64,000 nucleotides of DNA from an uncultured Clostridia bacterium (GTDB taxonomy: Bacteria > Bacillota > Clostridia > Christensenellales > UBA1242), in assembly GCA_944383975.1 (NCBI GenBank), contig CALWRN010000068.1, forward strand, positions 5,414-69,413. The letters are read 5' to 3'. Both the position numbers and the translations under genes were made by a program. Positions 3,340 through 20,030 of this stretch are shown one piece after another; the first letter of the stretch is position 1, and every line of letters starts with the position of its first letter. The notes under the pieces are model-generated. The model was given only the letters and a program-made list of their open reading frames with translations, was not told the DNA's origin and ran no database searches.

Positions 3340-5435
3340 TGGAGGTTAAATTGAAATTAGTTATCATTGAGTCTCCCTTTAAGAGGGAAGCATTAAAAAA
3401 ATATTTAGGCAATGGGTATGAAGTTTTTGCTACAAAAGGTCATATAAGAGATTTACCTACAAAAAGTTTTGGTATTGATGTTAAACATAATTTTGAACCT
3501 AAGTATGAAATCGTCCCTGATAAAAAAGAGTTAATAAATGAACTAAAGAAAAAAGCCTCAGAGGCAGATGAAGTTTTAATTGCAACCGACCCTGATAGAG
3601 AAGGGGAAGCAATAAGTTGGCATGTTGCAAATGTTTTGGGATATAAACCAGACCAAAATTGCCGTATTGAATTTAACGAAATTTCTAAAAAGGCAGTTAC
3701 TAAAGCTCTTGAAAATCCAAGAAAAATTGATTTAAAACTTGTTGACGCTCAACAAGCTAGAAGAGTTCTTGATAGAATTGTGGGATATAAATTATCACCT
3801 ATTTTATGTAAAAAAATTGCTCCAAAGTTGTCAGCTGGTCGTGTTCAATCAGTTGCTTTAAAGTTGGTGGTTGACAGGGAAAAGGAAATAGAAAAATTTG
3901 TTCCAGAAGAATATTGGATAGTTTCTGCTATACTTAAAAAAGATAAATATGAAATTAAAGCTTCTCTTACAACTTATAAAAAGAAAAAATTTGTTCCTAA
4001 AAACAAAGAAGAAGTTGATAAGATGCTTGATGAAATTAATGGCGAAAAATTTGGAGTTAGCGAAATTAAAAAGAGTAAAACAAAATCTCATGCACCAGCA
4101 CCATTTACAACAAGCACAATGCAACAAGACGCATTGAATAAGCTTGGAATGAGTCTTGCAAGAACTACTGCTTCTGCTCAACAATTATATGAAGGTGTTG
4201 AGGTTAAGGGAGAGGGTAAAATTGCACTTATTACATATATAAGAACAGACTCTGTCAGAATTTCAACTGATGCACAAAATGCTTGCAGGGAATTTATTAA
4301 AAATAAATTTGGTGAAGAATTTGTTCCTGAAAAACCAAATGTTTATCACACAAAAGAAAATGCACAAGATGCACACGAAGCGATTAGACCTATTACAATG
4401 GATATAACTCCAGAGATGGTTAAAGAAACCTTAACAAACGATAATTACAGACTTTACAAATTAATTTACGAAAGATTTTTGGCTTGTCAAATGAATGAAG
4501 CCGAATATTCAAATGTTGCTGTAACATTTAATTGTAAAGATTATGGCTTTAAAGTTAATGGTAAGACAATGGAATTTCCTGGTTATACAGCAGTTTATAA
4601 AGAATATGTTGAAGATGACAACAAGGAAGGAATGGCTGGAAAACTTCCAAAACTTGAAAAAGATGAAATTTTAGATTGTGAAAAGCTTTTGCCTGAACAA
4701 AAGTTTACAAAACCACCTGTAAGATATACAGAGGCAAGTTTAGTTAAGGCAATGGAAGAAAAGGGAATAGGAAGACCTGCAACTTATGCTGCAACAATTA
4801 CCGTTCTTACTTCAAGGCGCTATGCTGTTAAAGAAGGGAAATATCTTGTTCCAACCGAACTTGGAAGAAAAATCACTGAATATTTGGAAAAGTTTTTCTC
4901 AAGTGTAATAAATGTAAAATTTACTGCTTATATGGAAAATAGATTAGATGATATTGCAAGTAAAGATGAAGATTGGCATAGTGTTGTATCTAATTTCTGG
5001 AATGGCTTTGAACATTTGATTGAAAGAGCAGATGCAAGTTCGCTTACAATGAAAGAACCACCTAAGGAAACAGATATAATTTGTGATAAATGTGGTGGAA
5101 AAATGGTTATAAGACAGGGAAGATTTGGTGAATTTTTGGCTTGTTCAAACTTTCCTAAATGCAAAAATACAAAGCCTATTGAAAGTAATATCAAACATAT
5201 TGGAAAGTGTCCTGAATGTGGAAGCGATATGGTTGAAAGAAAGAGTAAAAAGGGCAAAATATTTTATTCATGTTCAAGATATCCAGATTGCAAATTTATG
5301 AGCTGGGATGTTACAACTGGAGAAAAATGTCCAAAATGTAACAGTCCAATTATCATAAAAGGTAAGAAAATTAAATGTAGCAATAACGATTGCGATTATC
5401 AAAAAGAAGATAACAAAGAAGACAATAATCAATAA
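3339..5435 (+). CDS. topA: DNA topoisomerase I
   Basis: TOPRIM start KLVIIESPFK, DPDREGEAISWH, and active-site region TYIRTDS. The C-terminus has repeated CxxC zinc ribbons (CDKCGG, CPECGS, CPKCNS). ATG 3339 overlaps the dprA TAA. An alternative TTG at 3351 sits 5 nt after GGAGG and may be the true start. Confidence 0.95.
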   Translation: MEVKLKLVIIESPFKREALKKYLGNGYEVFATKGHIRDLPTKSFGIDVKHNFEPKYEIVPDKKELINELKKKASEADEVLIATDPDREGEAISWHVANVLGYKPDQNCRIEFNEISKKAVTKALENPRKIDLKLVDAQQARRVLDRIVGYKLSPILCKKIAPKLSAGRVQSVALKLVVDREKEIEKFVPEEYWIVSAILKKDKYEIKASLTTYKKKKFVPKNKEEVDKMLDEINGEKFGVSEIKKSKTKSHAPAPFTTSTMQQDALNKLGMSLARTTASAQQLYEGVEVKGEGKIALITYIRTDSVRISTDAQNACREFIKNKFGEEFVPEKPNVYHTKENAQDAHEAIRPITMDITPEMVKETLTNDNYRLYKLIYERFLACQMNEAEYSNVAVTFNCKDYGFKVNGKTMEFPGYTAVYKEYVEDDNKEGMAGKLPKLEKDEILDCEKLLPEQKFTKPPVRYTEASLVKAMEEKGIGRPATYAATITVLTSRRYAVKEGKYLVPTELGRKITEYLEKFFSSVINVKFTAYMENRLDDIASKDEDWHSVVSNFWNGFEHLIERADASSLTMKEPPKETDIICDKCGGKMVIRQGRFGEFLACSNFPKCKNTKPIESNIKHIGKCPECGSDMVERKSKKGKIFYSCSRYPDCKFMSWDVTTGEKCPKCNSPIIIKGKKIKCSNNDCDYQKEDNKEDNNQ

Positions 5436-5633: not shown

Positions 5634-6881
5634 ATGAAATTTAATAGGTCTTTTATTAATGTAATTGGTTGTGGATTCGCGGGCATTGAATGTGCTTTAT
5701 TTTTAGCAGGACATGGGCATAAAGTCCACATATTTGATGCTAGCAAAGAGTATAAAGATTATAATGATATGCAATGTGATTTTGCAAAAAAAAGAGAAGT
5801 AAATGAAGCTCTTTTAAGAAGAGAATTATCTCTTCTTGGAAGTCCTCTTATAAAAGCTGAAGAAGAACTTATATTAAAAGGTTACAATAAAGAAGATATT
5901 TCATCTATTTTGCTTGCTATTGGCAAGGATATGGTGAAACATAACGAAAATATTGAGTATTTTGAGGCTTGTGTTCATGAAATAAATCCTAAAGAAGTAA
6001 CTATTATTGCAACAGGTCCAAACACAGATAGTCAAATGTTTGACTTTTTATTGAAGCAGTTTGGTGCAATGAGATGTTTTAGTCATATGCCAGTTTATCC
6101 TGTTGTGAAAAAAATTGACGAAGAAAAACTTTTAAAAAAAGATGATGATGAGCAAAATTTATATCTTCCATTGAATTATCAAGAATATATTGACTTTATA
6201 AACCATATTGTGAAAGGTTTAAATGAAGAAGTTGATAGTGATAATTTTAAAATAGTTGAAAACACAATGGAAGACCTTGTTGATAAAGGAAAAGATTGCC
6301 TGAAAAACTATGCAATGATTCCTGTATTGCTTGATGGTGCAATAGAAAAGCCTTATGCTGTTTTGAAGCTTAGAAAAACAGAAAAAGGCTATAGAATTGA
6401 AGAAATTTCGTCTAAATTTGACTTAATAAATCAAATGCAAGTTTTTTCTTCTTTAAATGGTTTTGCAAATTCTATTATTGTTAAGAAAGCAGATTCTCTT
6501 GATATTTGTTTTTTAAATTCTAGATATGTTGTCAATCAATTTCACCAATGTTTTCAAAATGATAATATATTTTTTGCAGGATCTATATTAGGAATTACTG
6601 GATATGTTGATTGTATTGCAAGTGGTTTATATACTGCTTTTAATGTTAATAAGTATTTTAATGATAAACGAATGATACCTTTACCAAAAAATACTTGTAT
6701 AGGTTCGCTTGCTAAAAGAATTGTATCGTCAGCATCAACAAAGCCACAACCATACATAGACGATTATGGAATAATAGAAGACAACTTTGATGACGATGAA
6801 ATAATTTCTAAAACTTTTGGAAAATCAATAGATGCGCTTGCGCAATTTAAGGAGGAATATTTAAATGGAAAGTATGTTTAG
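5634..6881 (+). CDS. TrmFO/Gid-like FAD-dependent protein (divergent)
   Basis: N-terminal dinucleotide-binding motif [14 protein letters not shown]. Blocks [14 protein letters not shown] and [20 protein letters not shown] parallel TrmFO, and the topA-trmFO-hslVU position is conserved. I could not find the catalytic-Cys motifs (see findings). The ATG at 5634 is preferred over the track's TTG at 5631. Confidence 0.65.
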
Positions 6882-7404
6882 AGGAACAACTATTTGTGGA
6901 GTAAAAAGAGATGGAAAAATTGCCATTGCAGGAGATGGACAAGTAACTTTATCTGAAAGTGTAATTTTTAAGTCAAATGCACACAAAGTAAGAAGAATTT
7001 ATGATGACAAGGTTGTTATAGGATTTGCCGGTTCAGTTGCAGATGCCTTTTCACTTTGTGAAAGATTTGAAAATATGCTTAACAAATTTTCAGGGAATCT
7101 TATGAGAAGTGCAGTTGAACTTGCTTCAACTTGGCGTGAAGATAAGGCTGCAAGACAACTTAATGCGATGATGATAGTTGCAGACAAAGAAAAACTTTTA
7201 ATAGTAAGTGGAACTGGTGAAGTTATTGAGCCTGATGACGATGTTTGTGCTATTGGCTCTGGTGGAAATTATGCACTTGCTGCTGCAAAAGCATTAAAAC
7301 AAAACACAAAACTTTCGGCAAAAGAAATTGCAAAGAAAGCATTAGAAATCGCTGGTCAAATCTGTGTATTTACAAATGACCATATTACAGTTGAGGAGGT
7401 TTAA
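6865..7404 (+). CDS. hslV: ATP-dependent protease subunit HslV (ClpQ)
   Basis: [32 protein letters not shown] and [11 protein letters not shown] are the Ntn-hydrolase HslV signature. RBS AAGGAGG lies upstream. Confidence 0.93.
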
Positions 7405-9955: not shown

Positions 9956-10795
9956 TTATTTAATTTCATAATCAAAAATAGAAGCATCATCTCTTATTTT
10001 AAATCTAGGGTATTTATTGCACAATTTATCAGATTCTTGAGCTTTGTAAAGTTTATTATAAATTTCATCTAAAGACAATCCCTTTTCAATTTCATTTGCT
10101 AGTTGTTCAAAACTATAAATGTGAAATACATTATATATTTGACTAAACCCATCACTCAGACCAATTATTTGTTTTACTTCTTTAATGTCAATTGTTCCAT
10201 AAAGACCATGGTCAATTGCGTCTTTACAATTAGATAAAGTCCAGTAGCCTTTATCAGTGTTTTGTGATAATCTTGTTTCAATAAGGTTTTCTTTTATAAG
10301 TGGAAGTGCATCAACAACATTAATTTTTTTGTTTGTAGCAAATTCCTTTAATTTTTTAATATTTTTACTATCTAGGTTTGAAAGGTCGTTGCGTTTTATT
10401 AGATTTATTTTGTTATCGGACGTTTTGATTATTAATTCACAATCTCCTAAAACAAAATATTCAATTTTGTCATTTAATTTTCTAAATAGGGCAATACTTG
10501 CACTTGGAAGACTTTTTATTTTTTTTGCACCATCAAATTGATTATATTTTTTATTTATAAGTGAAATTCCATCTTTTAAAATTTCCTTAAGATTTTTATT
10601 GGATCTAAGGTTTTTGATAAAATAGTTTTTCATTTCTTTAGCATACCATTTTGCATCACTTATGCTGTTTGTTATTTTTTCTTTTATTAAACCTGTTGCA
10701 CCATCAAGCACAAAACCAAAGCTGTCGTTTAAGTAAACACAGTCTTCGTTTTTATAATTACTTATTCCACCTCTAGAAAATATTTTTTTGTTCAT
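9956..10795 (-). CDS. PP2C-like (PP2C_2-type) phosphatase domain protein
   Basis: The pattern NEDCVYL..FGFVLDGATGL ... LGDCELII ... IGLSDGFSQIY ... RDDASI resembles metal-binding Asp motifs of PP2C-like domains. The assignment is from memory of that family. Confidence 0.5.
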   Translation of the reverse strand: MNKKIFSRGGISNYKNEDCVYLNDSFGFVLDGATGLIKEKITNSISDAKWYAKEMKNYFIKNLRSNKNLKEILKDGISLINKKYNQFDGAKKIKSLPSASIALFRKLNDKIEYFVLGDCELIIKTSDNKINLIKRNDLSNLDSKNIKKLKEFATNKKINVVDALPLIKENLIETRLSQNTDKGYWTLSNCKDAIDHGLYGTIDIKEVKQIIGLSDGFSQIYNVFHIYSFEQLANEIEKGLSLDEIYNKLYKAQESDKLCNKYPRFKIRDDASIFDYEIK

Positions 10796-13090: not shown

Positions 13091-13579
13091 ATGAAAGAGA
13101 TATTAAAAAAGAGAAATAAAACTTTAACTTTACTTGCTGGTTCTGTTTTAATTGGTATAGCAGGGGCTTGTTTGTTAGCAAATGGAACTATAACAAAAAA
13201 TAAAACAATTTCCCAATTTAAACAAACTGATGAATATGAAAACATTGTTGAAAGAAAAACAGAAGAATTAAATCAGCTTTTAAATGATGGACAATTGACT
13301 AAAGATGAATATGATAATGAATTAAATTATATTGCATCAAATGTTTTTGCTGAAGAAAAAATTGTAGAATCAAAAAATGATTATTATCAGGCACTTAAAT
13401 CATCAGACATTAAAAATATAGTGGGTGGTTCATTTATATTAGGTTCAGCAATTTCAAGTGTTGCGTCTTATATGTATTGTGATAATTTATCTTCAAAATT
13501 AAAAAAAGCAAAAAAGAGAGAGGATATTCTTGCTGCAATACAAAAAAGCAATGAAGATGAAGAAATTTATAATGAATAA
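13091..13579 (+). CDS. Hypothetical membrane-anchored protein
   Basis: 162 aa with an N-terminal TM (LTLLAGSVLIGIAGACLLA), a second hydrophobic segment near the C-terminus, and an RBS GTGAAGG upstream. No family recognised. Confidence 0.55.
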   Translation: MKEILKKRNKTLTLLAGSVLIGIAGACLLANGTITKNKTISQFKQTDEYENIVERKTEELNQLLNDGQLTKDEYDNELNYIASNVFAEEKIVESKNDYYQALKSSDIKNIVGGSFILGSAISSVASYMYCDNLSSKLKKAKKREDILAAIQKSNEDEEIYNE

Positions 13580-13671: not shown

Positions 13672-14238
13672 TTAATTATTTTCAACCATAGACTCTTCTT
13701 CTAATTCTTTTTGCATTTCTTTTAAACAATTTTTGAAATTTTCATATTCTTTATTTAAAGAATCTTTTAACTCTGGATGTGCTTTAAGTTTATTTGTTTT
13801 GTAAATATCAAAAGCAGTATCAAGATCTTGTTTGAACGATGACGAAAGTAACATATTAGGATCAACAACTAAAAGCCCACCAATTCCATATTGAGTTACA
13901 ACTTTTAAAGCCATCCAACTTTCTCTTGCGAAACCATTTTCATCAATTTGGCCATCTTTTAAGACTATTCTTGAGTTTTTATCCATTAAAACTCTTTTCT
14001 TTGCATTTAAAAAATAAGCACAAACATCATCATCTCCTTCCCAATGACCAAGATCTGTAACGGCTAAGTCGTTATAGAAATAGAGATTTTTTAATACATC
14101 CACATAATAACCATCTACATTTCTCATTTCTTGTTCAACACCATTTTTAACAATATAAGGTTTTCCAACATAAGAACCTACATCTTTTGTTGTGATATAA
14201 ACATCCTCATTTTTAGTTAAATATTTTTTAATATCCAT
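13672..14238 (-). CDS. Hypothetical protein
   Basis: 188 aa ORF with RBS AGGAGA upstream on the minus strand. No motif recognised. Confidence 0.55.
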   Translation of the reverse strand: MDIKKYLTKNEDVYITTKDVGSYVGKPYIVKNGVEQEMRNVDGYYVDVLKNLYFYNDLAVTDLGHWEGDDDVCAYFLNAKKRVLMDKNSRIVLKDGQIDENGFARESWMALKVVTQYGIGGLLVVDPNMLLSSSFKQDLDTAFDIYKTNKLKAHPELKDSLNKEYENFKNCLKEMQKELEEESMVENN

Positions 14239-14321
14239 ATTAATTCTCCTTACTAGTATTATAGCATAAAAATATAAAATGTCAATATTGAGTTTTATTT
14301 ATATATCACTTTTTATTACAT

Positions 14322-14347
14322 AATAAAAAGCAGGGGAGAATCCCTGC
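14322..14347 (-). terminator. Rho-independent terminator of the SRP RNA gene
   Basis: On the minus strand the hairpin gcaggga-ttctc-ccctgc (14330-14347) is followed by TTTTT (14325-14329). Confidence 0.75.
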
Positions 14348-14349
14348 TT

Positions 14350-14630
14350 AAAATTTCAAGGCTGGGCATCTTATATTGATAAAAACTCCCTAACTGCCTC
14401 ATTTATATTTCGCTCCACCAAAGCTTCCTCATGGCACACCAAAGTGTCCTCTTAATGATGCTACCGTCAGGTCCTGACATGATTCAAGGATTTTGATTGC
14501 ATAAGACCTTAATTTCATCACGGAATACAAATGCACATATTTAAAAAGTTTAAACCGCTATAAGCATTCAACCCCACTGTAGCGGATTGTGGGTAACAGA
14601 GCACCGCTAACTCTCCATCTAGCCCAGCAG
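14350..14630 (-). ncRNA. ffs: Signal recognition particle RNA, long Bacillus-type (scRNA/ffs)
   Basis: The minus strand reads ...GTCAGGACCTGACGGTAGCA..., the domain IV pattern (compare the canonical GUCAGGUCCGGAAGGAAGCAGC). The 5' GCTGGGC pairs with the 3' GCCCAGC as a closing helix. Length is about 275 nt, with its own promoter and terminator and no ORF. Confidence 0.8.
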
Positions 14631-14663: not shown

Positions 14664-14816
14664 TAAAAATTTATCTTTTAATATGCGAAGAATGTAAAAA
14701 ATCAATATAATGATTAAAAGTTATATATTAATTATTAAAATTATTTTGTAAAATATTCATTATTTTTATTTTTATATTTTTAATTATATGTTATAATCAA
14801 AATAATGAGGTGGTAA

Positions 14817-15548
14817 ATGGAGAATAGAGAGGTTTTTCAAAATTCTAAACGATTTATTGATGCGTATAATAACATAGATTATGCTTTGAAAACCAGATAT
14901 AATTTAAATAGGGCAATGGGCTTTTCTGATTTAATAAGAAAATCTGTAAGTATGAATTATGTTGTAAGAAAGTATGAAGATGATTTGATTGATTATGGAA
15001 GGCTTAGAAATGCTATTGTTCATAATAATAATGAGGATTTTGTTATAGCAGAACCACATGACTCGGTTGTTGAAAATATTGAACATATTGAAAAACTCTT
15101 GACAACTCCACCAAGAGCAATAGACACTGTTGCAAGAAAAAATGTATTAATTGTTTATGCTGGGGCAAGCATGAGAGATGTAATTATAACAATGGCAAAG
15201 TCAAATTTCAGCAATCTGCCTGTTTATAAGGGTAAAGAACTTATAGGAGTTGCAAATGGACAAAAAATTCTTACATCAATGGGACAATATATGATGGCAG
15301 GTGGAAAATGCTCAAGTTTTCTTGATAATGTTCAAATAGAAGATATGTTGTCATCTTTAGATAATAGCAACTATTATTGTGTAAAACCTATTGACTGCAC
15401 GGTTGAAGAAGCACTTCAAGAATATGATAAAAATCATAAGTTACTTGCAATATTATTTACTAAGAAAGGCACTCCTTCAGAACTTCCTGTTGGAATTATG
15501 ACTGGTGCTAATGTTGTTGAAGCTCAAAAGATTCTTGAAAATTATTAA
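14817..15548 (+). CDS. HEPN-like N-domain fused to a CBS-domain pair
   Basis: The N-terminal ~95 aa is helical and carries YGRLRNAIVH (R-x4-H, nt 15006-15023). The C-terminal ~140 aa has two CBS-like repeats (VIITMAKSNFSNLPVYKGKELIGVANG; EEALQEYDKNHKLLAILFTKKG..PVGIMTG). Confidence 0.6.
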   Translation: MENREVFQNSKRFIDAYNNIDYALKTRYNLNRAMGFSDLIRKSVSMNYVVRKYEDDLIDYGRLRNAIVHNNNEDFVIAEPHDSVVENIEHIEKLLTTPPRAIDTVARKNVLIVYAGASMRDVIITMAKSNFSNLPVYKGKELIGVANGQKILTSMGQYMMAGGKCSSFLDNVQIEDMLSSLDNSNYYCVKPIDCTVEEALQEYDKNHKLLAILFTKKGTPSELPVGIMTGANVVEAQKILENY

Positions 15549-15575: not shown

Positions 15576-15604
15576 TTGACAATGTTTGGGTTATTATTTA
15601 AAAT
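15576..15604 (+). promoter_or_regulatory. Sigma-A-type promoter of the ileS leader
   Basis: TTGACA (15576-15581), 17 nt spacer, TAAAAT (15599-15604). Confidence 0.55.
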
Positions 15605-15611
15605 AAAGATT

Positions 15612-15858
15612 GTATTTGAAAAACGTTGATAAAAGACAAGATTTTTAATTAAAGTTTATCACAGAGAGTTATCGGTTGGTGAAAGATAATATAAACAATT
15701 AAAAGTTATCACTTTTGGAGTTGGAATTGTGAAATAATAGTAATTATTCCCGGGACTTCCCGTTATAGAAGAGGTGGGTGATTGCCTGCTACAATTTAAG
15801 TTTACAAGTGGTTTAAAGTCGCAGTGAGTTCTTGTAACTTATTTTGCGATTTTTTTAT
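15612..15858 (+). promoter_or_regulatory. T-box leader (Ile specifier) controlling ileS
   Basis: Stem I motifs CAGAGAG and GGTTGGTGAAAG match the same motifs in the Tyr leader at 51.2 kb. The candidate specifier is GTT-ATC-A (AUC, Ile). The terminator tcgca...tgcga plus T7 lies at 15818-15857. The T-box 14-mer itself is degenerate (AGTGGTTTAAAGTCGCAG). Confidence 0.7.
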
Positions 15859-15873
15859 TAAAAGGAGATATAT

Positions 15874-18800
15874 ATGTATAATAAGGTTGATACAAAATTG
15901 GATTTTGTAGGTAATGAAAGAAAAATCTTAAAATTTTGGAAAGATAACAACATTATTAAAAAAGGATTAGAACTTAATAAGGGAAGTGATAAAAGTTATA
16001 CTCTTTTTGATGGTCCTCCAACTGCTAATGGAAAACCTCACATTGGGCATCCTTTAACTCGTGTTATGAAAGATATTATTCCTAGATTTATGTCTATGAA
16101 AGGTTATTATATTTATCGTAAAGCAGGTTGGGACACCCATGGACTTCCTGTTGAAGTTGAAATTGAGAAAAAACTTGGTCTTAACGGAAAACAAGATATT
16201 GAAAAATATGGTGTTGAAAAATTTATCAACCTTTGTCGTGAATCTGTTTGGAAATATAAAACAATGTGGGAAGATATGACAGATAAGGTTGGCTATTGGG
16301 TTGATATGGAAAATGCGTATATCACTTATGATAACAACTATATTGAAAGTATTTTCTGGGCACTTAAAGAAATGGATAAAAAAGGACTTATCTATAGAGG
16401 TCATAAAATAGTTCCTTATTGCCCACGTTGCGGAACATCTCTTTCAAAAATGGAAGTAGAAAATGGCGATAATTATAAAATTTTAAAAGAAAATTCTGTC
16501 TTCGTTAAAATGAAAAGTAAAGAGGAGGATAATACTTATTTCTTAGTATGGACAACAACTCCATGGACTCTTCCATCAAATGTTGCAATTTGTATGAATC
16601 CTAACGAAGACTATTCAAAGATTGAATGTGATGGTAAAAATTATATTTTACTTGATAGCCTTATTGGAAATTTATTTGAAGAGGGAAGCTATAAAAAGGT
16701 TTATACAAAGAAAGGAAAAGAATTTGAATATCATAAATATTATCCTTTATTTGATTATGTTCAAGATGAAGTTAAGAATGGATATTATGTAGTCGTTGAT
16801 GATTATGTAACAACTGAAGACGGAACTGGTATTGTTCATATTGCACCTGCATTTGGTGAAGAAGACTATAATGTTGCAAAGAAATATAATTTAACGTTTA
16901 TTCAACTTGTTGATGAAAACGGAAAGATGAGTGATAAAACTGAATTTGCAGGAATGTTTGTTAAAGATGCAGATAAGTATGTTATTGACAAACTTCAAAA
17001 AGAAGATAAGATGTTTAAGGTTCTTCCTTTTGAACATGCATATCCTCATTGTTGGAGATGCGGAAGCCCGCTTCTTTACTATGCAAGCAATGCTTGGTTT
17101 GTAAAGACAACAGCCATTAAAGATAAAATGGTTGAAAATAATAATGGTATAAATTGGGTGCCAGATTATATTAAAAAAGGAAGAATGGGAAATTTCCTTG
17201 AAAATAATATTGATTGGGGAATTTCAAGAAATAGATATTGGGGAACACCACTTCCTTTCTGGGTTTGTGAATGTGGACATACTCATGTAGTTGGTTCAGT
17301 AAAAGAATTAAAAGAACTTACTGGAGCACAAGGTGAATTAGATTTACACAAGCCAACACTTGATAAACTTACAATGAAGTGTGAAAAATGTGGAAAAGTT
17401 ATGCATAGAACACCTGAAGTTATGGATTGTTGGTTTGATTCTGGTTCTATGCCATTTGCACAATACCACTATCCATTTGAGAATAAAGAAACTTTTGAAA
17501 AATCTTTCCCTGCAGATTTTATTAGTGAAGCAATTGATCAAACAAGAGGTTGGTTCTATTCTTTAATTGCAGTTAATACAGCAGTATTTGGCAAAGCACC
17601 ATTTAAATCATGTAATGTTTTAGGTTTAGTTTTAGATAAACATGGACTTAAAATGTCAAAACATCTTGGAAATGGTGTTGATCCTTGGGATATTTTAAAT
17701 AAAGAAGGTGGCGACGCTTTAAGATGGTATTTCTATAATAACTGTGTTCCTGGACAAGGAATTGCATTCAATGAAGATAATTTAATAGAACTTCAAAGAA
17801 AATTCTTAGGAACATTATGGAATGTTTATGCTTTTTATGTTTTGTATGCTGAAATTGATAAAATTGATCCTACAAAGTATAATTTAAAAGATTGCAAACT
17901 TTCATTCCTTGATAAGTGGCTTTTATCAGAATATAATGCACTTGTCAAACTTGTAAACGACGCACTTGAAAATCATGATATGCTTTCTTCTTCAAGAGCT
18001 ATAACAGATTTTGTTGATAAACTTTCAAATTGGTATGTAAGACGCTCAAGAGAAAGATTTTGGGGCAGTGAAGAAAGTGATGATAAGATTGCAGCATATA
18101 AAACTTTGTATGAAGTTTTAGTGGGACTTAGCAAACTTCTAGCACCATTTGTTCCATTTATTTCAGAAGAAATTTATCAAAATTTAGTAAGAAATCTTGA
18201 TAAATCAGCTCCAGAAAGTGTTCACTTCTGTTCTTATCCTCAAGCAGACGAAAAGATGATTGATAAAACTTTAAATGAAGGAATGGATAAAGTTTTAGAG
18301 ATTGTTCTTCTTGGCAGAGCATGCCGAAGTGCAAGCAATGTTAAAAACCGTCAACCACTTGCAGAAGTTATAGTATGCACAAGCAAAAAATTAAAACTTG
18401 AAGATGAACTTGTAGAGTTAATAGAAGACGAACTTAATGTTGAAAATTTAGAGATTTTGCATAATGCTGATGAGTATGTATCTTATGAGATTAAGCCTCA
18501 ATTAAGGACTGTTGGTCCAAAATATGGTAAGGCACTTGGAGGAATCAAAGCATATCTTGCATCTGTAAATGCTGTTGAGGCTGTTTCAAAAGTAAGAAAT
18601 GGAGAAAACCTAGATTTTACTGTTGATGGACAAGAAATCTCATTAAGCAAAGATGATCTTCTTATTACATTAAAAAATAAAGATGGTTATTCAAGTGAAA
18701 CAAACGGAGAAATTACTGTTGTGTTGGATACAAGCCTGACTCAAGAACTTATAGAAAAGGGAATGATTAAAGAGTTTGTAAGTAAAATACAAAATTTAAG

Positions 18801-19005
18801 AAAAGAAAGTGGATTTGAAGTTGTAAATCATATAAAAATAGAAGTAAATGGTGATGAAAAACTTGAAAATCTAATTTTAAAATACTCACAACAAATAATG
18901 AAGGGAACTCTTGCAGATGTTGTTTGCAAAGGTGAAGAAGGACAAAATAAATTAGAATTTGAGTTTGATGGAAATAAAATTGTTGTTTCAATTTCAAAAA
19001 TATAA
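15874..19005 (+). CDS. ileS: Isoleucine--tRNA ligase (long, type-2-like form)
   Basis: PPTANGKPHIGHPLT (HIGH), LKMSKHLGN (KMSKS), and the editing domain TTTPWTLPSN. 1043 aa. Confidence 0.97.
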   Translation: MYNKVDTKLDFVGNERKILKFWKDNNIIKKGLELNKGSDKSYTLFDGPPTANGKPHIGHPLTRVMKDIIPRFMSMKGYYIYRKAGWDTHGLPVEVEIEKKLGLNGKQDIEKYGVEKFINLCRESVWKYKTMWEDMTDKVGYWVDMENAYITYDNNYIESIFWALKEMDKKGLIYRGHKIVPYCPRCGTSLSKMEVENGDNYKILKENSVFVKMKSKEEDNTYFLVWTTTPWTLPSNVAICMNPNEDYSKIECDGKNYILLDSLIGNLFEEGSYKKVYTKKGKEFEYHKYYPLFDYVQDEVKNGYYVVVDDYVTTEDGTGIVHIAPAFGEEDYNVAKKYNLTFIQLVDENGKMSDKTEFAGMFVKDADKYVIDKLQKEDKMFKVLPFEHAYPHCWRCGSPLLYYASNAWFVKTTAIKDKMVENNNGINWVPDYIKKGRMGNFLENNIDWGISRNRYWGTPLPFWVCECGHTHVVGSVKELKELTGAQGELDLHKPTLDKLTMKCEKCGKVMHRTPEVMDCWFDSGSMPFAQYHYPFENKETFEKSFPADFISEAIDQTRGWFYSLIAVNTAVFGKAPFKSCNVLGLVLDKHGLKMSKHLGNGVDPWDILNKEGGDALRWYFYNNCVPGQGIAFNEDNLIELQRKFLGTLWNVYAFYVLYAEIDKIDPTKYNLKDCKLSFLDKWLLSEYNALVKLVNDALENHDMLSSSRAITDFVDKLSNWYVRRSRERFWGSEESDDKIAAYKTLYEVLVGLSKLLAPFVPFISEEIYQNLVRNLDKSAPESVHFCSYPQADEKMIDKTLNEGMDKVLEIVLLGRACRSASNVKNRQPLAEVIVCTSKKLKLEDELVELIEDELNVENLEILHNADEYVSYEIKPQLRTVGPKYGKALGGIKAYLASVNAVEAVSKVRNGENLDFTVDGQEISLSKDDLLITLKNKDGYSSETNGEITVVLDTSLTQELIEKGMIKEFVSKIQNLRKESGFEVVNHIKIEVNGDEKLENLILKYSQQIMKGTLADVVCKGEEGQNKLEFEFDGNKIVVSISKI

Positions 19006-19202: not shown

Positions 19203-20030
19203 ATGAACTTTAATTTAACAAAAAAACAAAAAATAGAAAGGGCTTGTGGTTATAATCCTATTCTTAAGGGAATTGTTATTGATCAATTTAACAATTTTGA
19301 AAAAGCTAAATCTTTCTCTCTTCCTAAACATAATTATGAGGTTGGAGATAATGTAAAATTAAAAAGCGATACAATTATGCATGATCTCCGTGATGATCGT
19401 CAATTCAATTTTATTTCTCAAAATGGTTTTATTGCAAGAGATATTTTTGAAAAAAAGAGTATGTCTAAATATCCAAGATGTATCAACTTTTATAATGTGA
19501 AAAAAGACAGAACTTTAGCTGATTATATTGATGAATATAGTGGATGTAGCATAAGATGGCTTAATAAGGGGAAAGATGAAATTCATTCTCAAATAATCCC
19601 TTTCACAAAAGTTCATAAAGAAATGATTTATAATAAAAATGCGTGGTTTGCGGAACAACTTAAAGAAAGTCGTTTTATGCCATGTTTACAAAATGATTTT
19701 TCTCCTATTGCATTTATATTGGATATGAGCAGCAAACAAGGTAAGCAATTTATGGAGGCAAATATTGCAAAAGAGAGCTTTGATGATGATGACGCAAGAA
19801 TGTTTGTAAGCAAACTTTCATTTCAACGATTTGTTTCAAAAAAACATTCACACAATTCAGAATTTTCAGACAGAGAATCTCATGTTGTTTACGGAATTCC
19901 AAAATGTTTTGTAGAAGGAATTTTAGTTAATAGAGATTACGAGAAAAAGCAAGAAAAACTTGATATGATTAAAACTGCTTTTCCAAATGCTTATATTTGC
20001 AATCTTGATGGAAAAGTTATTGTTAAATAA
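19203..20030 (+). CDS. Hypothetical protein
   Basis: 275 aa ORF with RBS AAGAGG upstream. No TM segment and no recognised motif. Confidence 0.6.
   Translation: MNFNLTKKQKIERACGYNPILKGIVIDQFNNFEKAKSFSLPKHNYEVGDNVKLKSDTIMHDLRDDRQFNFISQNGFIARDIFEKKSMSKYPRCINFYNVKKDRTLADYIDEYSGCSIRWLNKGKDEIHSQIIPFTKVHKEMIYNKNAWFAEQLKESRFMPCLQNDFSPIAFILDMSSKQGKQFMEANIAKESFDDDDARMFVSKLSFQRFVSKKHSHNSEFSDRESHVVYGIPKCFVEGILVNRDYEKKQEKLDMIKTAFPNAYICNLDGKVIVK

Follow-up and report, generated by a model that had tools for sequence, protein, structure and literature searches.

The question raised by this locus is whether a bacterial gene encodes an RNase that is switched by a small molecule. The gene lies at 14817..15548 (+ strand, stop codon included) within a 64,000-nucleotide (nt) stretch of contig CALWRN010000068.1 from an uncultured Clostridia bacterium, which as a whole we refer to as the window, and a sequence-only reading had proposed that its product fuses a HEPN-like domain to a pair of CBS repeats. 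The coding sequence opens with an ATG and specifies 243 residues, with a HEPN-like N-terminal domain (the N-domain) followed by a CBS pair. Its extent is confirmed by the list of open reading frames (ORFs), and the ribosome-binding site named in that reading, a Shine-Dalgarno-like GAGGTGG at 14807..14813 (+), is confirmed by the sequence, with the ATG 3 nt further on. We favor the interpretation that the gene encodes a ligand-gated HEPN-CBS sensor-RNase, to which we assign a rough probability of 0.55.

The argument turns on R64-N65-A-I-V-H69 (15006..15023, +), the putative HEPN catalytic motif, and this R-N-x3-H motif is the most conserved feature of the family. It forms part of the string DYGRLRNAIVH, which occupies residues 59-69 of the 243-residue protein, exactly as the sequence-only reading had numbered it. 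Aligning 91 diverse full-length relatives, with 24-61% identity to the query, leaves just six positions without variation, L63, R64, N65, H69, A78, and P80, and R64-x4-H69 is also kept in all 120 of the closest homologues. An R-x4-H pair is expected by chance in about one in ten single sequences of 95 residues (our own estimate, from amino-acid frequencies), and it is the invariance of R64, N65, and H69 in 91/91 relatives, rather than the presence of the motif in one sequence, that raises it above chance. Upstream, D21-x3-K25 (14877..14891, +) is a candidate counterpart of the HEPN acidic motif, which is typically E-x3-[K/R] (PMC3710099); in the family alignment 86/91 members have D or E at position 21, and 77/91 have R or K at position 25. 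The loop that follows the R-N-x3-H motif contains the patch A78-E79-P80-H81 (15048..15059, +), in which E79 is present in 75/91 and H81 in 65/91 relatives, beside the invariant A78 and P80. We know of no counterpart in described HEPN families of the slightly longer I-A-E-P-H patch (residues 77-81, nt 15045-15059), which could contribute family-specific active-site or interface residues.

Structure prediction gives these residues a consistent setting. A full-length AlphaFold2 model computed with the 91-sequence alignment has a predicted local distance difference test score (pLDDT) of 95.1 and a predicted template modeling score (pTM) of 0.88, and a model of the N-domain alone has a pLDDT of 89.6. 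In both models residues 8-96 are helical (8-27, 36-43, 48-52, 54-68, and 82-96) and an alpha/beta region follows, which bears out the proposal that the N-terminal ~95 residues form helices. R64 and N65 close helix 54-68 in both predicted structures, H69 opens the ensuing loop, and 82-96 is the final helix. The Rx4-6H motif of HEPN domains sits in the same place, at a helix end and the start of the loop leading to the last helix, and the residue after its conserved arginine is N, D, or H (PMC3710099). Among the features that define HEPN domains in that study, the N-domain has the Rx4-6H motif, a polar residue (N65) after the arginine, the upstream acidic motif and, in the predicted structures, the position of the motif. 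Helix 8-27 may correspond to canonical HEPN helix 2, judging by the alignment to HepT described below. We set the limits of the all-helical HEPN-like domain at residues 1-98 (14817..15110, +) from the AlphaFold2 models, the weak HEPN-clan Pfam matches, and the template modeling (TM) scores to HepT and the sacsin HEPN domain.

Profile comparisons point in the same direction when the family, rather than the single sequence, is used as the probe. At E <= 1, the 91 members match HEPN_RiboL-PSP (29 members, the commonest Pfam family other than CBS), HepT-like (16), DUF6548 (14), DUF3644 (6), HEPN_Cthe2314 (4), and HEPN_Apea (3). The family consensus aligns with HepT-like at E 5.9e-4, residues 5-66 falling on profile positions 33-93 of 120 and the alignment ending on the motif, and the best natural member matches the same model (PF01934) at E 8.6e-4. 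When the family profile is compared with Protein Data Bank (PDB) sequences the top three matches are HepT toxins (E 0.6-1.2), with LRNaivH aligned on HepT LRNIAVHD and the flanking helices in register. A Foldseek search of the PDB with the N-domain gives 22 matches, of which only HepT 7bxo (0.55), the sacsin HEPN domain 3o10 (0.54), and HepT 6m6w (0.47) have TMq > 0.45, all remaining targets having TM <= 0.33. Taken with the motif, these comparisons make it quite probable that the N-domain is homologous to the HEPN superfamily. We also note that the best single Pfam match of any natural member is to DUF6548 (PF20185; E 6.9e-5, and 2.2e-4 for the consensus), which may be an unrecognized HEPN-like family related to this N-domain. 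Membership in the Swt1 or Abi2 families, the former suggested by the sequence-only reading, finds no support, as HEPN_Swt1 and Abi_2 are unmatched by the query, by ten N-domain sequences (E <= 10), and among the 25 commonest families of the 91 members.

The C-terminal half is readily assigned. Pfam recognizes a single CBS repeat, which spans residues 105-146 and scores 32.7 bits (E 9.3e-8), above the gathering score of 24, and 88/91 relatives match the CBS model. The proposal of two CBS-like repeats holds because the full-length model aligns over ~140 columns with solved CBS pairs: of the 251 PDB chains that it matches at E <= 1e-3, the 50 best are without exception CBS-domain proteins (TMt ~0.7, E ~1e-5 to 1e-6). 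Many of the matched modules are ligand-bound, with AMP, ATP, Ap4A, or cyclic di-AMP (c-di-AMP). On the basis of the Pfam and structure matches we place the CBS pair, or Bateman module, at residues ~101-243 (15117..15545, +). The G-h-h-T-x-x-D motif of CBS domains binds ribose and phosphate. Its counterpart in the second repeat, CBS2, is G226-I-M-T229-G-A-N232 (15492..15512, +), located from the family alignment, in which T229 is present in 84/91 and D232 in 82/91 relatives.

These observations suggest a plausible mechanism. The product would be a cytoplasmic and probably homodimeric sensor-RNase, in which R64-N65-x3-H69 would act, with help from D21, as the active site of an endoribonuclease that needs no metal and whose products end in 2',3'-cyclic phosphates. 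By analogy with known HEPN enzymes, a full active site would require a second HEPN domain placed opposite the first. The CBS pair would serve as the dimer platform and would take up a ligand that contains adenosine, for which the G-h-h-T-x-x-D/N site of CBS2 is the likeliest place; ligand binding could then shift how the two HEPN domains and their R64/N65/H69 patches are held, turning RNA cleavage either on or off. The model draws on reports, and in part on general knowledge, that HEPN RNases work without metal and require a pair of HEPN domains and that CBS pairs commonly dimerize and bind adenosine derivatives (PMC3710099, PMC13092281). In the cell such a protein may adjust translation, or the turnover of RNA, to the nucleotide or energy state, and is less likely to act in mobile defense.

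Several results weigh against the sensor-RNase interpretation. The query alone has no HEPN Pfam match at E <= 10, and neither query nor family brings any HEPN model to its curated threshold, the consensus reaching 20.0 bits against the HepT-like gathering score of 23.5. Against the PDB, no Foldseek match of the N-domain has an E-value below 1.2, and a Foldseek search of a viral structure library with this domain returned nothing interpretable. Profile-profile comparison by hhalign gives P = 0.066 over 30 columns with a narrow HepT subfamily, and P = 0.17 with the HEPN region of DS-11, a one-protein CBS and HEPN anti-phage system considered below. Only residues 45-124 of HepT are covered by the alignment, and the N-domain may therefore have no equivalent of canonical helix 1. 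At the proposed ligand site, the window protein carries N232 where 82/91 relatives have the ribose-binding D. Finally, a HEPN RNase encoded without an antitoxin gene requires tight auto-inhibition, which we assume.

The outcome for the fusion as originally proposed is thus mixed. The helical N-domain, the invariant R-N-x3-H, and the CBS pair that follows all stand, with the HEPN matches sub-threshold. Of the HEPN profile or fold match for residues 1-95 on which the sequence-only reading had staked its case, the profile match is absent for the query alone and stays below the gathering score for the family, and the fold match amounts to TM scores of up to 0.55 with E-values that are not significant. 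With the query alone, Pfam, NCBIfam, and PADLOC give CBS and no HEPN, and a search of PDB sequences gives CBS proteins and chance spectrin matches only. DS-11 provides a calibration: its HEPN domain, validated by mutagenesis, has no Pfam HEPN-clan match at E <= 10, CBS being its only match, so that functional HEPN domains associated with CBS escape the current Pfam HEPN models. For the N-domain, we judge a HEPN identity probable but unproven.

The sub-threshold HEPN matches are also what would be expected if the N-domain were HEPN-like, or merely helical, and not a nuclease at all. The CBS pair would then be a nucleotide sensor acting through a partner protein or RNA, as CbpB/DarB acts on Rel, and R-N-x3-H would be a binding surface. 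The structures closest to the C-terminal half include just such partner-acting CBS sensors (DarB-Rel 8acu, CbpB 6zza, and AcuB 9s4x-9s52), no antitoxin or immunity gene adjoins the supposedly toxic RNase, and non-catalytic HEPN domains do exist, for example in Swt1, MtlR, and nucleotidyltransferase-associated forms (PMC3710099). However, HEPN domains without catalysis have also lost Rx4-6H (PMC3710099), whereas in this family R, N, and H are kept by all 91 relatives and the upstream acidic residue is conserved. Moreover, no conserved partner gene recurs across lineages in the related loci examined. We consider a non-catalytic N-domain unlikely, although it is the alternative to the sensor-RNase that survives best.

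The distribution of the family bears on what role a sensor-RNase might play. A search at E <= 1e-3 finds 1301 homologues; identity to the query is 70-100% in the 120 closest, and those of the 120 that carry names are mostly called just 'CBS domain-containing protein'. The phyletic survey of the fusion that the sequence-only reading had called for yields, with the N-domain profile, 871 clusters (50% identity, E <= 1e-3) among 1.84 billion cluster representatives, and a scan of a collection with one genome per species gives at least 594 matching genomes. The architecture is stable, in that nearly all full-length clusters among the 150 listed are 225-260 residues long with the N-domain at the N-terminus. 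The best 80 of the at least 594 genomes are metagenome-assembled genomes of uncultured gut Clostridia, including Candidatus Caccovivens and Christensenella-like and Catabacter-like forms. Members are also found throughout Enterococcus and Tetragenococcus, where the gene is core.

Gene neighborhoods were sampled at ~95 loci of ~870 clusters, and they are conserved. In 75/80 loci of related gut Clostridia ileS lies directly downstream, the contigs of the other five ending too early, and the linkage extends to a member only 41% identical, with a gap of 45 nt. The gene for signal recognition particle (SRP) RNA is found by blastn in 55/80 loci, generally just upstream of the HEPN-CBS gene, and iscS-nifU lies upstream in 37/80. 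The enterococcal homologues found in two 'phage' records are 232-234 residues long and 28-32% identical to the query; the stop codon of the gene overlaps the lspA start, with rluD and pyrR following. Other distant members adjoin genes for an RNase T-like exonuclease, FKBP, and DprA, for a ribosome hibernation factor, ComM, and DprA, or a dynamin-like gene. No recognizable defense island surrounds the distant members examined, and no nucleotidyltransferase gene was seen among the window neighbors or in the related loci.

The enterococcal context also offers a link to a phenotype. The E. faecalis homologue is immediately upstream of lspA, EF_1723 is LspA (PMC4173765), and EF1724 is annotated as a 'CBS domain-containing protein' that is 'Fitness Important' and enterococcal-core by transposon sequencing, Tn-seq (PMC7701990); for these reasons EF1724 is probably the E. 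faecalis orthologue. Counting against the weight of this phenotype for our interpretation, it could be a polar effect on the overlapping lspA.

Carriage on mobile elements is slight. Homologues occur in 3/72,556 plasmid records (Chlorohelix and Rhodococcus; 23-27% identical), of which the Chlorohelix copy, the sole one checked, keeps the motif; the two contexts examined, that of the Chlorohelix copy and that of one Rhodococcus copy, have mobile-element-type neighbors. Phage carriage was considered and rejected: the matches in the phage collection carry the UNVERIFIED_ORG label and are in fact pieces of enterococcal chromosome. The two records, OR846607.1 ('Enterococcus phage Efs 1-1-1') and OR849199.1 ('Listeria phage LM 4-14-1'), hold the ordinary enterococcal chromosomal genes fhs, lspA, rluD, pyrR, pyrP, and pyrB, and one protein of the 'Listeria phage' fragment matches an E. 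faecium protein at 100% identity; both are likely host-DNA contigs and not phage. The family as a whole is core-like and vertically inherited with conserved housekeeping synteny, and the window gene is no isolated oddity.

It is against this background that a role in defense has to be judged. The gene could be a single-gene abortive infection system of the DS-11 type, in which the CBS pair senses an infection-linked adenine nucleotide and unleashes the HEPN RNase to kill or arrest the cell. DS-11 is likewise a single protein with CBS and HEPN domains, and needs the R and H of its HEPN domain and a CBS tyrosine (PMC13092281), while most prokaryotic HEPN domains work in conflict systems (PMC3710099). 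Distant plasmid-borne homologues lie near genes for a DNA methyltransferase and Uma2 or HNH endonucleases, and in one distant locus a HEPN_AbiU2 gene is two genes away. Nevertheless, the score of 16.5 bits falls far below the DS-11 cutoff of 260 and comes through the CBS region only, the domain order is reversed, a sequence relationship to DS-11 is undetectable beyond the motif, and PADLOC gives no match. Inheritance is vertical and core-like within stable neighborhoods of ileS, lspA-rluD, HPF, or RNase R, and the family is essentially absent from plasmids and genuine phage records. A defense function is thus improbable in our estimation.

Because the family is vertically inherited and core-like, with neighbors in translation and envelope housekeeping, we favor a physiological role for the sensor-RNase in RNA metabolism or translation over one in defense. 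Spelled out in full, the proposal is that a housekeeping, non-defense HEPN RNase, gated through its CBS pair by an adenosine nucleotide or second messenger and core in enterococci and many gut Clostridia, couples energy or nucleotide status to cleavage of a particular translation-related RNA. This fuller version is tentative, and we regard it as somewhat doubtful in its entirety. The fixed position beside ileS, SRP RNA, and rRNA-modification genes suggests tRNA, rRNA, SRP RNA, or the transcript of ileS or of the lspA-rluD block as candidate substrates.

That the N-domain is a helix-turn-helix (HTH), making the protein a CBS-regulated transcription factor of the CcpN type (CcpN being an HTH-CBS regulator), is very improbable: several members are called 'predicted transcriptional regulator' by JGI, two consensus matches to PDB sequences, at an E of only ~1, fall on Lrp/AsnC-type HTH regions (7fby and PH0140), and there are weak NCBIfam matches to the CBS-containing regulators PrdR, HhpR, and SpxR, but the latter run wholly or largely through the CBS region and not the N-domain core, R64, N65, H69, A78, and P80 lie outside the HTH-aligned segment, no HTH Pfam family is matched by the query, by ten N-domain sequences (E <= 10), or among the 25 commonest families of the 91 members, and the 22 Foldseek matches to the PDB lack winged-helix and HTH folds, which are very abundant there, the matches being to non-DNA-binding helical proteins except for two RIG-I-like helicase (MDA5) entries with poor TM.

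Within the window, the gene sits between the SRP RNA gene and the T-box leader of ileS, as the sequence-only reading had placed it. The large bacterial SRP RNA gene is at 14362..14627 (-; RF01854, 164 bits), the T-box leader at 15617..15837 (+; RF00230, 77.1 bits, E 4.2e-17), and ileS at 15874..19005 (+; TIGR00392, 953 bits). The HEPN-CBS gene has a candidate extended -10 element, TGtTATAAT at 14789..14797 (+), inferred from the sequence and unflagged in the promoter scan because a good -35 is absent. Ahead of the T-box, the ileS leader has the promoter-like TTGACA-17-TAAAAT flagged in that scan (15576..15604, +), and no terminator-like site was found in the scan between the HEPN-CBS gene and this promoter.

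Regulation of ileS appears to differ within the clade, since a T-box is present in some relatives and undetected in others. A T-box leader is present in the window and at two related loci (L054 and L072), whereas in seven others (L052, L062, L066, L068, L071, L075, and L076, with the HEPN-CBS gene at ~4001-4705) ileS starts 25-50 nt after the gene, and Rfam detects no T-box anywhere in the locus at the four of these that were scanned (L052, L062, L066, and L076). The short gap and the lack of a T-box suggest co-transcription with ileS in those loci. At 77 bits the window T-box is under the Rfam gathering score of 93, and is therefore overlooked by a default Rfam scan; the T-boxes of relatives score lower still, at 51-65 bits. 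In four relatives ~79% identical to the query (L001-L004) a 150-residue ORF (6833-7285, +) without a Pfam match intervenes between the HEPN-CBS gene and ileS, and this ORF is absent from the window.

Other features of the region are noted for completeness. The isoleucyl-tRNA synthetase (IleRS) of the window (15874-19005, +) is a long form of 1043 residues, and its scores with the MupA and MupB models (mupirocin-resistant, type 2) nearly equal that with the general ileS model, although far under the cutoffs of the former; it is probably a type 2 IleRS. An RluA-family synthase downstream of ileS was rejected as an orthologue of enterococcal rluD, being 34% identical, lacking the N-terminal part, and scoring below the subfamily cutoff, and we therefore claim no shared ancestral cluster. 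On the minus strand, a terminator-like hairpin with a T-run (14328-14349, -) is immediately downstream of the SRP RNA gene and is probably its terminator. A consensus sigma-70 promoter, TTGACA-16-TATAAT with an upstream TG (12/12 matches; 14258-14285, -), is directly upstream of a 188-residue ORF (13672-14238, -) with no Pfam or NCBIfam match. Three more ORFs lack Pfam matches, at 13091-13579 (+, 162 residues), 9956-10795 (-, 279 residues), and 19203-20030 (+, 275 residues), and the 162- and 275-residue ORFs lack NCBIfam matches as well; the 162-residue protein has a hydrophobic N-terminal segment followed by a coiled, charged remainder.

Among known systems, the best sequence and structure neighbor of the N-domain is HepT (DUF86, PF01934), the type VII HEPN-MNT toxin exemplified by Shewanella SO_3166 (PDB 5yep, 6m6w, and 7bxo). 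HepT is a dimeric, metal-independent RNase, and the tyrosine of its R-x4-H-x-Y motif is the site of AMPylation. This tyrosine is invariant in the HepT alignment (Y104), whereas the window protein has R64-NAIV-H69-N70-N71 and no tyrosine. Nor is an MNT antitoxin gene nearby, the neighbors being the SRP RNA gene and the T-box-ileS unit, and the N-domain is fused to a CBS pair and seems to lack the first ~44 HepT residues. An identification as HepT itself was rejected, as PF01934 stays under its gathering score and both the tyrosine and the MNT neighbor are absent.

Csm6/Csx1 (CARF-HEPN) and RNase L/Ire1 (KEN/HEPN) offer an analogy of mechanism only, and we claim no homology. In Csm6/Csx1 and RNase L a dimeric ligand sensor allosterically controls a composite HEPN RNase in response to cyclic oligoadenylates or 2-5A (described in part in PMC3710099). 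The sensor here is a CBS pair rather than a CARF domain or an ankyrin and pseudokinase arrangement, and the CRISPR or interferon context is absent. For the C-terminal half, the matches are to CbpB/DarB, AcuB, and the OpuCA CBS module of Firmicutes (Foldseek E ~1e-5, TMt 0.5-0.7), which bind AMP, ADP, ATP, Ap4A, or c-di-AMP, but which have no HEPN-like domain and act through partner proteins or a fused transporter ATPase.

The idea of a HEPN-CBS protein is already published. In 2013 Anantharaman, Makarova, Burroughs, Koonin, and Aravind described active HEPN-CBS fusions, with or without an HD domain, and predicted that these sense nucleotides and adjust the stability of RNA accordingly; alr3009 and Pelobacter propionicus gi 118580987 are examples listed under 'Swt1-like, other fusions' (PMC3710099). 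That description was purely computational. The window protein shares with these a probable HEPN domain with an intact Rx4-6H motif and CBS domains in one polypeptide, and the same functional prediction; it differs in having neither an HD domain nor a HEPN_Swt1 match, the comparison with the 2013 examples being by description. The window family may well have been among the 2013 fusion set. What is new here is a large, unnamed, and uncharacterized CBS-plus-HEPN family with a housekeeping flavor.

DS-11 (WP_000257686.1) was validated in E. coli in 2026 in the DefensePredictor study in Science (PMC13092281), and we took its sequence from the supplement; NCBIfam represents it as NF053863, 'CBS domain-containing anti-phage protein'. 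Either of the HEPN substitutions R330A and H335A abolishes defense, as does the CBS substitution Y157A, and in the AlphaFold3 prediction the protein dimerizes with ATP bound at its CBS domains (PMC13092281). As in the window protein, a CBS pair is combined with a HEPN domain having R-N-x3-H (IRNDVMH in DS-11, LRNAIVH here), and in both proteins the HEPN domain escapes the Pfam models. However, DS-11 has 365 residues arranged as N-terminal extension, CBS pair, and HEPN, whereas the window protein has 243 with HEPN preceding CBS. The match of the window protein to NF053863 covers residues 105-152 only, within the CBS region, and the enterococcal homologue reaches 21.1 bits. A kinship of the N-domain with the DS-11 HEPN domain, suggested by eye, was dropped given the hhalign result and a BLASTP comparison that was not significant. 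By sequence, the window family lies outside the DS-11 family.

The contrast with DS-11 is also one of life style, in that DS-11 is, by our reading of the draft assemblies in the supplement, a strain-variable accessory gene of E. coli, whereas the window family has a core-like distribution and housekeeping neighbors. Nearly all HEPN RNases known in bacteria belong to conflict systems, namely toxin-antitoxin systems, abortive infection, CRISPR ancillary nucleases, and now DS-11, and this family has the same sensor-plus-nuclease logic yet behaves as a vertically inherited core gene. If the protein proves inactive, it simply adds to the CBS sensors, with a helical head that is out of the ordinary. 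If it does cleave RNA under the control of a ligand, it would offer a tractable example of how a small molecule governs RNA decay in Gram-positive organisms, a clinically important genus among them, and a family whose sole annotation is now 'CBS domain-containing protein' would gain a name and a domain model. Should the physiological role proposed here prove true, the protein would be the first bacterial HEPN RNase under ligand control to work outside conflict, set apart in this respect from DS-11 and the other conflict systems.

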